DNA from: Chiloscyllium plagiosum
Lineage: Eukaryota
Length of the DNA: 64,000 nucleotides
Direction: 5' to 3'
Assembly: GCF_004010195.1 (NCBI RefSeq)
Contig: NC_057719.1
Span: forward strand, 38,476,473-38,540,472
Part shown: positions 1-57,150 of the stretch, one piece after another
Layout of the letters: the number at the start of each line of letters is the position of its first letter
Numbering within the stretch: position 1 is the stretch's first letter
Translations under genes and position numbers: made by a program
The notes under the pieces: model-generated
What the model saw: only the letters and a program-made list of their open reading frames with translations
Told to the model about the DNA's origin: nothing
Databases searched by the model: none

Positions 1-143
1 GTCCCCCCTCCCTACCTTTTATCTTAGCCTGCTGGACACACTTTCCTCATTCCTGAAGAAGGGCTCATGCCCGAAACGTCGATTCTCCTGCCCCTTGGAT
101 GCTGCCTGACCTGCTGCGCTTTTCCAGCAACACATTTTCAGCT
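1..143 (+). mobile_element. Penelope-derived short element with hammerhead core at 53-80
   Basis: CTGAAGA-A-GGGC(TCAT)GCCC-GAAAC-GTC followed by the family tail gatgctgcctgacctgctgcgcttttccagcaacacattttcagct. Confidence 0.8.
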
Positions 144-302
144 ACATAACTATTAAGCAACCACACACAAATTACTGCTTTGATAATACTTGAATGCAGC
201 TTACATAGAATTTCTTTTGATCAAATGAAGGGAGGAATTAAAATACTAATATTATGCATTTTATCAATTATTTAACTATTTGCACTAAATCTGAAAACTT
301 AC

Positions 303-442
303 CTCAAATCCAGTACCAGGCTAGCAACAACTCCAGGCTGCATAGATTTGCCTTCAGCTACATCATATAGAAAAAGCTTACAATCACAAACCACCGCATA
401 TGCTCGTTGCCAGCCTTTCTTCACTCCTGTGGGTTTGGGAAC
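303..442 (-). CDS. CDC42BPB: Exon ~26, start of PH domain: [46 protein letters not shown](R)
   Basis: Manual translation; 140 bp; AAG/GTAAGT. Confidence 0.96.
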
Positions 443-1064
443 CTTGAGAAAACAAATAAAATTAATAAGTAAATGGAACTGAAGATTGTTTAGTCATCAT
501 CAAATTTCAATAACCCTGGCACAAGGCCCTTTCTCAATTTTACTTTTTACACAATTAAGTGTGCTTCCTAATGCTGTTTTTTTTATTTTTCTTTTCTTTC
601 TGCTCTACTATTCAGGTTCAAAAAGCTGCATTTTTCAAAATACTCAATATTACTGTTCCAGAATGAATTTGTCCCAAACCACTTCAATATCAGATCAAAC
701 CAGAATAGTTACAGTGGGGATTGCAACACTGATTGGTTTTCTTTCACACCAGTAGTCAAGTATATGATGGAAACTATGATATAATGGTTGAATAATGTAT
801 AATATTTGAATTTTTACCTGCAGACGACTAGGAGCTAGCAGCACTGCATGTATAGTGCATGTACAATTTACAGAGTAAATTAAGATGGATCATCTCTTCA
901 AATTGGCAACAATATATAAACAGTGCAATAACTATCTATTTAAACTCTTGCCACTTTCAGTGCATTAATGTGCTAAAACTAAACATACACTAAACAAGCA
1001 TGTGTAACAATCTGTGGAACAGTGGTCATAAATTTAACATTTTATCCAAAGATTATTTCAATAC

Positions 1065-1201
1065 CTTTACGTAGCCTTTGTAAGCTGTGCCAATACCCCT
1101 CTGAACATCAATTCCAAGTGGCCTCTTTGCTTGCTCAGATGGAAGAGGGCAGACTTGGGGGGCACTGTCTTTGCACAAGACATGGCATATAAACGAGCAT
1201 A
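1065..1201 (-). CDS. CDC42BPB: Exon ~25, C1 second half: [46 protein letters not shown]
   Basis: ORF 1053..1250; 137 bp; TAG/GTATTG; all C1 zinc ligands intact. Confidence 0.96.
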
Positions 1202-1475
1202 CTACGGAATAAGAAAAATTATTTTGATGGAGACATAATAACAAACACATTAGATTTTAGTGAAACACTAATAACATTTCAAATCTAAACTGATATTTAG
1301 ATATTGTAAAATAACTGCACAATTTTCCACAGAACTATTTTACTAACATTTTGTTGCCATTAAAAACACAGGTGCAAAATTAATTTTACAACTTTACATA
1401 GTTTTACCTCATATCAAACATTGAATTCCAAGAATGTCAAAGTATTAGAATAGATAATATTGATGTATCACTCAC

Positions 1476-1581
1476 CATCGCAGGCATATCCCTGTCGTAC
1501 TAAACCCACCATGAGAGATGTACAATGGCTACACTGTGTAGGGCTTGAGAAATTTCTGATACTGACCTGATGGGCTTTAGG
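1476..1581 (-). CDS. CDC42BPB: Exon ~24, C1 domain first half: [35 protein letters not shown]
   Basis: Manual translation; 106 bp; CAG/GTGAGT; H-x12-C-x2-C pattern. Confidence 0.96.
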
Positions 1582-2430
1582 CTGAGGAATTCAAGAGAAA
1601 AGTACAAAGGGGGACATGATAAGCTGACATAGCTGTTCTTTATAATAAAAACACACTACTTTTTTTTTATTATTCATTCACAGAATGGAGGGCTGCTAGC
1701 TATGCCAGCATTTACTGTCCATCCCTAATTGCCTAAAGGGCAATTAAGAATCAACCACACTGCTGTGGGTCAGAATCAGATCTTTATTGAAGTAGCTCTT
1801 ATGGTATAGTGCTAGTGTGGCACCTGAGTTCAAGTTCTACCTACTCCAGAAGTGTGTAATAACATTGAACATGCATCTTTATGTGAAATTATTCAATTAA
1901 ATAGTTGAATTTTCAGGTTGAGTTGGTGCTCCACGATCAAGTTCCTTTCTGGGACTTGGAAGGCCAAAAGAAGGTACACTCAATGTGATCAAACAAGTTG
2001 AAGATGAATTTACAAATCCTTTCAACCAAGTCAATGGTGGATAGCAAGAATGGGACACACATTTGGTCATCCATGTGATGTAAAATAATTGGATAATTAC
2101 CATCACTATCTAGAGCTCCAGGCTACAATGTACATGTGCAATGTGTGTTGTCACAATAACTTCAACTCCGTGGGGTTGAAGGGGCAGTTGGCTTAATAGC
2201 AACTTGGAACAGATTGGTGCCTAACTGGGTTCAATTCTCATCCAGACTAGGTGGATTTGGCACCTGCCTCCTTGACCATGTTGGAGGTTGTGGTTTAAAC
2301 CTGCATTTGGGCAGAGATCTTGAGAACTGAATCTTCACTTAAATTTCATCAATATGAACAAATGGGAAATCAATATTGGACTTCTAAATGAACACCTTTA
2401 CTAACAACTATAAAAATAAACAAAGTATAC

Positions 2431-54123: not shown

Positions 54124-55691
54124 CTAGGATAATGAAAAGCACAAAAATAGAGATTTTTATTCAATAAATTGTAATAAAGTTGTTTGAACACTGGTTATAA
54201 AAAAGTGCAATTAAAATGCAAGAAAGAAGAAACATATTATCCATCTTAAAATCATTAAAGCAGTAAGAGTATTTCTTCAGAACTGGGATACTAACTCTGC
54301 GGTGAATTTAGGCACAGATTTGTACTGTTACCCCAGCTGCAACAAAACCAACATTGGCTAGATCCATTTATGTATACTCATTCTCAAATATTTGAATCCC
54401 CTCATCTAATTCAAAACTAGTGCTAATCTGGGTTTGCTCGCTGAACCAACAAATTACATCTAAATTCTGAATAGATTCTTTCCCAAGACAATTTGAAAAT
54501 CCTGTCAGTTACATGCTTCTCTGGCAGAAGAGCAAAAACAGGAACTTGGCCCAATAACATTGGCAGGGTTGAAAGAAAGGCTGAGTTTTTAATTAGTGAA
54601 AATATGAAACAATTGCTGGTCCATCTCCTTTGGAAATGTCAAGAACATTTAATTGGGTTGGAGTGGTTGAGGTGGAAAACAGCAAAGTGGATCTCCATTT
54701 TACCTTATTACTAGTGACTATAATATTTATCTTCAATCCAGTATTTCAGTTCAATTACTTCTGACTGTGCTTGGAAGTGCTTCTATTCCTCATTCCAAGA
54801 TCACTCACTTATAAATTTAAAATTGAGATCTTCCATGGCAAAACATTTCAATGCTGTCTCATGATCCAGACATTTACATTTGAAGTAGTAGTATTTTCTT
54901 TCCACAAATGCTGTACAAACTGACAAAGATGTATGTGTACAGTTTAATGAAATGCTGCATATTTTATTTTATTTTTAAGCTGCATCGTATAAATCTATCA
55001 AAACACTGGAAAATGTACTTTAAAAACAAAAGTGGCCTTTCAAACAACCTTCATGTTGAAATCCCTACTAAAAAATTAATGTTTACTGCTGTGCAAATAG
55101 GCTTTGCCTCAAAATTGTTCTTCTGACCAATTAGAAGAACAAACAGAAATTATTTCAGGTAAATACACAGATTATATACAATACTTATACCAAGATATTT
55201 AATTCTCACAGTAATCATTATAAACCTTCGAGTTTCCACTCATTCAAATGCTGTTCATTAGATCATGTTTTACATAACTGGAAATGTATTAAGTGTTCTA
55301 CAGCCAAACATGAATTTTTGAGAAAAGCCAATTGAATAACCAGATGTCTAGCAATAAAAATATTTTAAACTTCCAGATTGTCACAGGTTTTAATATTAGG
55401 GCTACCTGACAACAAAACTAACCTACGCATTTTGACAAGGCTTGGCCAGACCATGAAACGAAACATCTAGCTGTGGTTATAGCTAAGTTCTACGACTTCC
55501 CAGGCTCCTCTTACTATTTGAATTTTAGAAGTAAAACAAAATTTGAAAAGGAAGAGAAAGAAATATTGTCACAAAAATGGGAGTACAGTAAAGAACCAAA
55601 TTTAGGTTCCATCTGTAGACAAATGGTACTACTTCTGGGCTGTTACACCTCTGAACCTATTTTAGCAATCGAGCAAAACTGAAGTACTAAC

Positions 55692-55940
55692 TGGATTTTT
55701 GAGAACATCATCATCTACATCAAAGTTTGAAGTGTCCGTTGGACTGCTGACTTCAGGAATATAAGGTGCTTCAATATTTCTAATGTTGTCCCAATCAATC
55801 CCTTTGAAAAATGAATGTTTTTTGAAATCTTCCATTCCATTTTTTCCAATGCGATGTTCTCTACTACAGATTAATTGCTGTATCAAATCCTTGGCTTCGT
55901 CAGACACATCAGTGATATGAGAGGGAAACTGGAACCTTTC
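55692..55940 (-). CDS. CDC42BPB: Exon ~8, end of kinase and AGC tail: [28 protein letters not shown]...[25 protein letters not shown]
   Basis: ORF 55662..55907; 249 bp; CAG/GTTAGT. Confidence 0.97.
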
Positions 55941-56401
55941 CTGTCAAACAAGATGCAGACTACATGTTATTGACAATAGCACCCAAGCAAAAACAGCGTA
56001 ATAAGTGTCCTTTGCACATATAAGATGCGAGTTAGTTAGTTCTACCTTCATAGACAGATCACCTAAAAAAATGGAATTAACTTAGAAGCAAAGTTTAACA
56101 TTTTCCTTGAAGTATTGGCCTGTTGTTTTTTTTTAAATCAGAAAAACTAGCCATGTACAATCAGAATTGAGCACAAGATCCAATGAGCAATTCCTAATGG
56201 CATGCTAAACGTTTCATAAATCAATTTAAATTAAAACACATTGTAACCATTTGAGCAGCTTATCATAATCTTCTGCAATATCCAATGGCATAAATTGCAG
56301 AACCATTCTTCTTCTACAGTGAATACTGTGGTTCTGTGCAAATAGTTTAATAATTACACACACAATTTTAAAATGCCTGCCCTTAAAAAAAAAGTTCTTA
56401 C

Positions 56402-56602
56402 TTGGTGATTCATAATTTTCCCATACGTTTCTACCAGTGATTCTGCATAAAATGGTGTTTCGCCAACAAGCATTTCATACATGCATACACCAAGAGACCA
56501 CCAATCGCATTCTGGTCCATACTTTCCCATTCCATCCTCCATTGCTTGCAAGATTTCTGGAGAAATGTAGTCAGGAGTACCAACTGCTACAGAAGATTGC
56601 AC
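56402..56602 (-). CDS. CDC42BPB: Exon ~7, activation segment: [67 protein letters not shown]
   Basis: ORF 56354..56602; 201 bp; TAG/GTAAG boundaries; MRCK/DMPK-family sequence. Confidence 0.97.
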
Positions 56603-56824
56603 CTAAATAACAGAGACAGGAAATCATCAAAAACTGCATAATTGGTGCATGCTTTACTTTACCCAACAAAATACAGATAACAAAACATTATTGGTTTAAA
56701 GATGCACATTCAGGCATCAGACAACTGACATATGAATAAGTCGGAGATGCCGGTGTTGGACTGGGGTGTACAAAGTTAAAAATCACAACACCAGGTTATA
56801 GTCCAACAGGTTTAATTGGAAGCA

Positions 56825-56859
56825 CACTAGCTTTCGGAGCGACGCTCCTTCATCAGGTG
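56825..56859 (-). ncRNA. Minimal type-I hammerhead motif, sense to the host pre-mRNA
   Basis: Exact reverse complement of 57116-57150. Confidence 0.85.
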
Positions 56860-57115
56860 ATTGTGGAGGGCTCCATCGTAACACAGAATTTATAGCAAAC
56901 ATTTGCAGTGTGATGTAACTGAAATTATACATTGAAGAATTGATTGTCTGTTAAGCCTTTCATCTGTTAGAATACACATGAAAGAAGTGAAACTATCACT
57001 GTATTCTATCAGATGAAAGGCTTAACAGACATCAATTCTTCAATGTATAATTTCAGTTACATCACACTGCAAATTTTTGCTATAAATTCTGTGTTACGAT
57101 CGAGCCCTCCACAAT

Positions 57116-57150
57116 CACCTGATGAAGGAGCGTCGCTCCGAAAGCTAGTG
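57116..57150 (+). ncRNA. Minimal type-I hammerhead ribozyme motif
   Basis: CAC-CUGAUGA-A-GGAGC(GUC)GCUCC-GAAAG-CUA/GUG; stem I CAC:GUG; palindromic AGCU stem III. Confidence 0.85.

Follow-up and report, generated by a model that had tools for sequence, protein, structure and literature searches.

Penelope-type hammerhead motifs in the introns of a Chiloscyllium plagiosum kinase gene and a pile-up of copy starts at their front edge

Minimal type-I hammerhead ribozymes, their structural traits and their link to Penelope-like elements (PLEs) have been known since 2014. In the accessible parts of the description of metazoan PLE hammerheads (PMC4209133), the monomer is reported to be inactive and dimers to be weak, and the available portion of PMC6765202 characterizes small dimeric PLE hammerheads (Lunse, Weinberg, Breaker) by a diminished stem III, an association with PLEs and cleavage as dimers. 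In the anole, a PLE cleaves and extends both strands, has two internal start sites that define its tail, and uses unprocessed RNA, its hammerhead cutting only with protein (Anolis carolinensis Poseidon PAc; PMC11167929). An inverted pseudo-long terminal repeat (pLTR), a tail and a target-site duplication (TSD) are known PLE features according to the accessible sections of PMC8557442 and PMC3846280, the former of which calls the role of PLE hammerheads unclear. Here, we describe motifs of this kind in a 64,000-nucleotide stretch of the Chiloscyllium plagiosum genome (NCBI RefSeq assembly GCF_004010195.1, contig NC_057719.1, positions 38,476,473 to 38,540,472, forward strand), which we refer to as the window and which covers introns of the kinase gene MRCK-beta. 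We consider it highly probable that they are the 3' ends of at least four endonuclease-positive (EN+) PLE families, present mostly as very short and often mirror-image dead copies that are likely idle in the introns. They show one odd feature, in that, of the copies extending as far as the motif, about half start at its front edge.

For sharks, we found no hammerhead count in the open-access literature (Repbase and Dfam lay outside this search), and the two searchable supplements of PMC4209133 contain no shark name. A whale shark paper, in its accessible part, merely lists Penelope as present, and the available text of bioRxiv 2026.07.22.740005 covers one cartilaginous fish in its survey for tandem retrozymes. 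Likewise, judged from listings, no open-access paper on twin priming in Penelope was found.

Hammerhead cores in the window and across the genome

Judged from their sequence, the minimal type-I hammerhead motifs in the window are real. A descriptor with a stem II of at least 4 bp, one extra base and two bases between A15.1 and U16.1 gave 11 matches in the 64 kb, compared with a mean of 0.03 (maximum 1) in 100 dinucleotide shuffles. An earlier note on this window had cited ten such sites, and all ten are present with CUGANGA, one extra base, a paired stem II and GAAA-NN-UH; the eleventh, a decayed core at 24256, had been overlooked. The type-I order, C3UGANGA9 followed by G12AAA15.1 and then by U16.1H17, is found at 11/11 sites. 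The extra base between A9 and stem II occurs at every cited site, and stem II pairs in all 11 cores, with covariation between the families, whose stem II types are GGGC (family A), GGGUC (B), GGAGC (C) and GUUACC (D).

For stem I, the list of pairings given previously was incomplete, since it left out the commonest family, the GGGC type, to which 5/10 cited sites belong. At the five GGGC-type sites of the window, contiguous stem I measures 2, 2, 2, 1 and 4 bp. Most copies of family A have 2 contiguous bp, as do 51/113 cores of the genome sample introduced below, and stem I comprises 3–4 bp in families B, C and D and in a further family, E, where about 4–5 bp would be expected of a minimal type-I hammerhead in a PLE pLTR. 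Stem III, which had been described as loopless and palindromic or decayed, is a Watson-Crick palindrome at 7/11 sites, a wobble form (AUGU) at two and broken (ACAU) at two, so that the previous count of about ten intact cores stands for the 11 core letters but not for this stem. The energy of the 4-bp duplex is -1.7 kcal/mol for ACGU and -2.5 kcal/mol for AGCU, and stem III never forms in the predicted folds of nine sequence windows tested (z-scores -1 to +0.4). For family B (window positions 25330-25387, minus strand, and 27252-27310, plus strand), an alternative fold is predicted, in which a pyrimidine stretch some 15 bases past the cut site pairs with the first core box; this fold would inactivate the ribozyme.

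The 11 cores come from eight insertions, because three of the insertions are head-to-head pairs. A comparison with Rfam, which the earlier note had put forward as a check, returned nine matches in the window, none of them a ribozyme, and no hammerhead at E values up to 5; it would therefore have missed these cores. To sample the 3.56-Gb assembly, we took 140 stretches of 10 kb each, at even spacing, from its 38 largest contigs (1,355,694 called bases). The descriptor gave 113 matches in this sample, compared with 0, 0 and 0 in shuffles and 0 in the reversed sequence. The spacing with one extra base dominates this 1.36-Mb sample, as 14 other spacings gave at most six matches each. The resulting density is 83 per Mb, or about one core per 12 kb, and corresponds by rough extrapolation to some 296,000 cores genome-wide. 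Exact patterns run on the whole genome gave 93,494 GGGC-type and 23,982 GGAGC-type cores, that is, at least 117,476 from the two patterns, with reversed controls of 0. In the 113 sample cores, stem III reads ACGT in 69 and AGCT in 18, and 21 more differ by one step of CpG-type decay. At 83 per Mb in the genome sample, the location in MRCK-beta introns is not special; the window contains 11 cores compared with about five expected, but these come from only eight insertions, and we do not take the enrichment as real.

Parent elements and anatomy of the copies

Comparison with their upstream DNA identifies the motifs as the hammerhead-bearing 3' ends (pLTRs) of at least four EN+ PLE families. This bears out the earlier proposal of minimal type-I hammerheads in Penelope-like pLTRs; from one family to another the core is kept, and stem II covaries. 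It speaks against the accompanying view of one non-autonomous family resembling a short interspersed nuclear element (SINE), as there are at least four families, each leading upstream into PLE coding sequence. All four continue into GIY-YIG coding sequence, and A and B also into reverse transcriptase (RT). At one locus of family A, the upstream DNA encodes 535 residues with RVT_1 (E 6.8e-7), YIDD, a CxxxxCxxC linker and then GIY-YIG (E 8.5e-4, under the Pfam cut-off). For families C and D, the upstream GIY-YIG-type sequence was recognised by eye, and three family C loci gave no Pfam match. In 20/20 loci with upstream DNA, 346–1006 bases before the core region are shared with another locus, with differing end points.

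The linker (CX2-5CxxC), a Neptune trait, reads CNRRRCNTC in family A and CHGGRCKTC in family C, has left a decayed trace in B, and was not seen upstream of the EN in relatives of family D. Judged by the motifs in the accessible part of PMC8557442 rather than by a tree, the clade labels would be Neptune for A and B, probably Neptune for C, and Penelope/Poseidon for D. Two further types, E and F, occur in the genome sample outside the window. In family E (sampled loci L090:4825-4855, plus strand, and L101 near 1410-1425, both strands), U3-A8 replaces C3-G8 in the core (two clear copies), and the hammerhead has a perfect AGCU:AGCU stem I and an ACGU palindrome. Because its flank is homologous to those of A and B, U3-A8 is a genuine case of compensatory change within the catalytic core; the same variant is also given for Schistosoma in the available part of PMC4209133.

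In family A, an ATG 19 bases past the cut site opens a frame through the end of the pLTR and the tail (MLPDLLRFSSN...; L012:1858-1983 and window positions 97-143), whereas the frame of PAc starts at stem II (PMC11167929). The block containing this frame is the best-kept part among A, B, E and F, and the open reading frame (ORF) may begin with it. In family C, no such block is seen.

Between families, the core is kept beyond its flanks, as the earlier note had expected. When one real copy from each of the six families is compared, 11/11 core letters are identical among A, B, C, D and F, the flanks of which are 43–67% alike; with family E and its U3-A8 swap, 9/11 core letters are shared, and the flanks are 43–70% alike over all six. 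Among A, C and D, the flanks agree at 43–48%, no better than shuffles, and in the 60 bases downstream A, B, E and F are 60–70% alike, most pairs with C or D lying at the level of shuffles. That the core is kept across families while the flanks have diverged argues for selection on the fold in master elements. Single copies decay neutrally. In a copy-level test of family A, for which 95/184 copies were kept and those truncated in the core or out of register were dropped, 41/950 core letters (4.3%) and 127/3800 flank letters (3.3%) are changed (p=0.17), and CpG sites are changed in 12–19%. All core letters are retained in 65/95 of these copies; since the core is no better kept than the flank, this intactness reflects youth.

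The insertions display the PLE traits of 5' truncation, an inverted 5' copy, a one-sided tail of 30–40 bp and a TSD. In family A, 3' ends cluster at two points, about +50–65 and +97–99 from the cut site, which are some 35–40 bases apart. Head-to-head pairs within 2.5 kb account for 34/60 anchors of family C and 100/244 of what we call the A group, as the family A anchor also picked up copies of B, E and F. The tail is found on exactly one arm in 44/50 A-group pairs and 15/17 C pairs (59/67 together). TSDs, mostly 10–18 bp long, bound three pairs (17, 12 and 16 bp) and one solo copy (14 bp) in the window. By analogy, these pairs and tails fit the two-site, both-strand priming of the anole element (PMC11167929). 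At the solo copy (window positions 53378-53396) and at two further loci (L080 and L050), the few bases between the TSD and the start of the copy are an inverted copy of the start of the TSD, which suggests that the target strand folds back before joining.

Where the copies begin and what may set their starts

We placed the 5' ends of 242/244 A-group copies and of 60 copies of family C. Of those still aligned at C3, 85/156 in the A group and 24/40 in C end in the next 10 bases upstream. Most other bins contain 2–6 ends per 100 per 10 bases, with shoulders of 11–18 beside the peak. Further upstream, the rate is back to about 2–4, and in the first 10 core bases 35/192 A-group and 8/48 C copies end. 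Among 142 young A-group copies, 54 end in the pile, with a mode at -4, and the pile has the same offset in two families with unrelated flanks. We also considered that the ends might be a cleavage fossil, with copies starting at the cut site, and found this not supported, as 4/242 A-group ends lie at +28 and 0/60 C ends at +29; the few A-group ends at the cut site that were inspected are pair junctions with stem I complementarity. With few or no ends at the cut site, the copies appear to have been made from uncut RNA.

The pile-up may mark where the template RNA starts. It is possible, though less likely than not, that shark Penelope mRNAs start at the hammerhead and that the protein often primes just behind it, pasting only a leader of 90–130 bases; an RNA start at the pile combined with internal priming would explain solo and paired copies alike. 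A number of points weigh against this. The pile is spread over about 10 bases, a cap-derived G is not evident by eye at the 5' junctions, and 37/85 A-group and 16/24 C ends in the pile are arms of inverted pairs, whose joint the self-complementary hammerhead sequence could itself favor. Alignment to the wrong subfamily may add false 5' ends. RNA reads from a related species (2826 reads from one run) show no pile of starts or ends, which is a weak test given the poorly suited library. Lastly, the search for a tandem master, in which a 5' pLTR would lead into the ORF, found none, and the promoter and start site are therefore not seen: a same-strand pLTR anchor lies within 1.5 kb upstream in 0/30 of the best-scoring long copies, all of which are 5'-truncated, and no common continuation past the tail exists among 153 A and 56 C tailed copies. 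One pair with shared sequence past the tail also shares its upstream sequence and was set aside as an old duplication.

It is quite possible, if short of probable, that the pile instead arises in the copying step, either by RT drop-off after the folded or protein-bound ribozyme or by cDNAs that anneal or fold back at the self-complementary stems. The breadth of the pile, the end rate that is already raised inside the core and the many junctions that use stem complementarity point in this direction, and the accessible part of PMC3846280 argues for self-priming at inverted junctions; yet 48/85 piled A-group ends have no detected inverted partner, the rate drops upstream of the pile, and its offset is identical in both families despite their unrelated flanks.

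We regard it as unlikely that the short units form a non-autonomous SINE or retrozyme in the true sense, in which short copies would give rise to an RNA of 90–130 bases starting at the hammerhead, to be recopied by the Penelope protein in trans. Solo inserts with a TSD do exist (53392-53486), and, besides the start of about half of the core-reaching copies at the 5' edge, 13/80 A-type TSD candidates end close to C3 (within -22 to +4, a figure that has no chance control); non-autonomous PLE derivatives have also been described (accessible parts of PMC8557442 and bioRxiv 2026.07.22.740005). However, 5' ends and pair junctions vary between copies, and in place of a fixed 5' end the sequence runs into coding sequence; loop II variants are common to short and long copies, and we infer that short copies lose any promoter upstream of the core. 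Furthermore, no tRNA gene was found (Pol III boxes were not scanned separately), nor any head-to-tail tandem array of hammerhead units in the window, and same-strand, same-stem neighbors within 3.5 kb amount to two cases among the 113 cores of the genome sample, 2–2.8 kb apart.

The insertion process could be pictured as follows. Selection would keep the ribozyme fold only in master elements, where the ribozyme would cut weakly, as a dimer via its 4-base palindrome and probably helped by the element's protein. Both DNA strands would be nicked by that protein, which would begin to reverse-transcribe uncut RNA from two internal sites downstream of the ribozyme, a separate one for each strand; this two-site priming would yield paired inserts with one tail. 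Copying would usually halt at the 5' edge of the ribozyme, most likely since many templates would start there, from a promoter in the pLTR. In host pre-mRNA, a core would be without a nearby partner on the same strand, and long hairpins would trap those copies that are paired.

Context in the window and comparison with known systems

One kinase exon in the window matches, without any difference, a bamboo shark protein cluster that bears the name MRCK-beta, and the MRCK-beta protein (CDC42BPB) maps exon by exon across the minus strand, with exons for approximately residues 196-1179 at 302..58272. As had been claimed, the cores lie in kinase introns, all 11 of them between MRCK-beta exons. With the gene on the minus strand, five are sense and six antisense to the pre-mRNA, and two of the sense cores belong to arms of fold-backs that are near-perfect, with 82–91% predicted pairing. 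The reads from the related species cover the repeat on both strands without an end pile, as expected for read-through, although the test is weak; over L012:1700-1990, they contain many A>G and T>C differences, which could reflect editing of fold-back hairpins or subfamily variants. The cores would seem to be passengers in the kinase introns. That MRCK-beta pre-mRNA is cut or regulated by some of them, as active or domesticated ribozymes, is very improbable: five of the 11 are sense to the gene, the one at 56856 retains every core letter along with a stem I of 3 bp and an AGCU palindrome, and the repeat appears in the RNA reads on both strands, but the copies decay neutrally and have no strand bias, the closest same-family sense partners are 8.7 kb apart, with one inside a fold-back hairpin, and stem III is absent from the predicted folds.

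Family A (Neptune-type) opens the window with a 3' end without tail at 1..143 (plus strand; C3 at 53, predicted cut after 80), which extends past the window start. A short copy with a tail follows at 8437..8565 (minus strand; C3 at 8560, predicted cut after 8533); it starts about four bases before the core and has no clear TSD. The head-to-head pair at 17152..17382 joins a tailless minus-strand arm (C3 at 17243) to a plus-strand arm with a tail (C3 at 17260), is bounded by a perfect 17-bp TSD at 17138 and 17381, and is predicted to fold back with -165.9 kcal/mol and 82% of its bases paired. The solo insertion at 53392..53486 (plus strand; 95 bases, no tail) starts five bases before C3 (53397) and is bounded by a 14-bp TSD with one mismatch (53378, 53487). 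Three decayed family A pairs lie at 4137..4341 (tail on one arm, cores broken; 16-bp TSD with one mismatch at 4121 and 4342), at 11283..11444 (core box altered) and at 63684..63839 (the arms meet downstream of the first core box; no core is intact).

Family B is represented by an old short copy at 24250..24350 (plus strand; C3 at 24256), in which the stem III tetramer is broken, and by a decayed element at 25303..27100 (minus strand), which ends in a pLTR (C3 at 25377) and has an inverted 5' pLTR arm at 27180..27400 (plus strand; C3 at 27262). Coding remnants are retained in two window copies: in this element (25.6-27.1 kb), as broken RT and GIY-YIG frames at 25589-27087 (tblastn with family A proteins, E 7e-55 and 9e-14), and in a 3' remnant of the Poseidon-type family D (38.9-39.4 kb), where a broken GIY-YIG frame is followed by the hammerhead (38770..39400, minus strand; C3 at 38905, predicted cut after 38872). 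Inside this remnant, at 39052-39118, 67 bases of intron sequence from 37642-37708, 1.4 kb away, recur exactly, a match that marks them as a templated insertion. The fold-back insertion of family C at 56737..57202, longer copies of which contain a Neptune-type EN, comprises a minus-strand arm with a tail (C3 at 56856) and a tailless plus-strand arm (C3 at 57119), is predicted to be 91% paired, and has a 12-bp TSD with one mismatch (56725, 57203).

Another abundant decayed repeat with open frames occupies 3700-5460, 11490-11890, 18230-18890, 30879-31463, 44836-45180 and 52650-53110. Its copies resemble what we take to be 3' ends of CR1/L2-type long interspersed nuclear elements; two that were tested gave no Pfam match. 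Elsewhere in the genome, both strands of one locus (L223; G000:C95229:1-8000) contain long frames without stops across 5.5 kb, which are probably a tandem repeat.

The scale of the phenomenon matters, as at least 117,476 exact cores, and some 300,000 by extrapolation, are missed by Rfam. The copies record the insertion reaction in bulk, with two 3' starts, one tail per mirror pair and a break before the ribozyme, and the same record contains no clear break at the cut site; the young shark families are test material for the role of PLE hammerheads. Should the mRNAs indeed start at the hammerhead, the approximately 300,000 uncut cores would preserve, as fossils, a map of where the element starts, and the ribozyme would act as a structure at the 5' end of the mRNA, not as scissors that free the template. 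This would provide a direct handle on what PLE hammerheads do, in perhaps the most hammerhead-rich genome counted yet.

Compared with the Neptune and Penelope/Poseidon PLEs in the accessible parts of PMC8557442 and PMC3846280, the shark elements have the same order of RT and C-terminal GIY-YIG, a zinc-finger-like linker in families A and C, and the same heavy 5' truncation, inverted 5' copy, tail of 30–40 bp at one end and TSDs. Their TSDs of 10–18 bp differ from the 8–10 bp of the rotifer examples, and their truncation is extreme and position-biased. With PAc (PMC11167929), they share two 3' end points behind the hammerhead, which delimit the tail, copies that keep the uncut ribozyme, and the lack of RNA reads ending at the cut site. 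PAc, however, was assayed in vitro and occurs in tandem, whereas the shark elements are known from sequence alone, without a tandem master. Non-LTR (long terminal repeat) retrozymes, in the available text of bioRxiv 2026.07.22.740005, are likewise non-coding hammerhead repeats related to PLE pLTRs, but form head-to-tail tandem arrays, whereas the shark cores are dispersed, either solo or head-to-head. The small dimeric PLE hammerheads, as presented in the accessible part of PMC6765202, resemble the shark motifs in their diminished stem III and PLE association. Finally, every structural trait in the earlier note is already present in the metazoan description, as far as the available parts of PMC4209133 extend: the type-I form, the loopless helix III with a palindromic 15.2-16.2, the extra base between 9 and 10.1, G10.1-C11.1, the U3-A8 variant, many families per genome with covariation, a majority of single motifs from truncated PLEs, and opposite-strand pairs 100–700 bp apart. 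These parts give no description of 5' ends piling up at the core, stem II in families A, B and C is 4–5 bp long, unlike that of the set given there, and the at least 117,476 exact cores of the shark compare, under differing search rules, with about 4,000 in the coelacanth and about 9,000 in Xenopus tropicalis.

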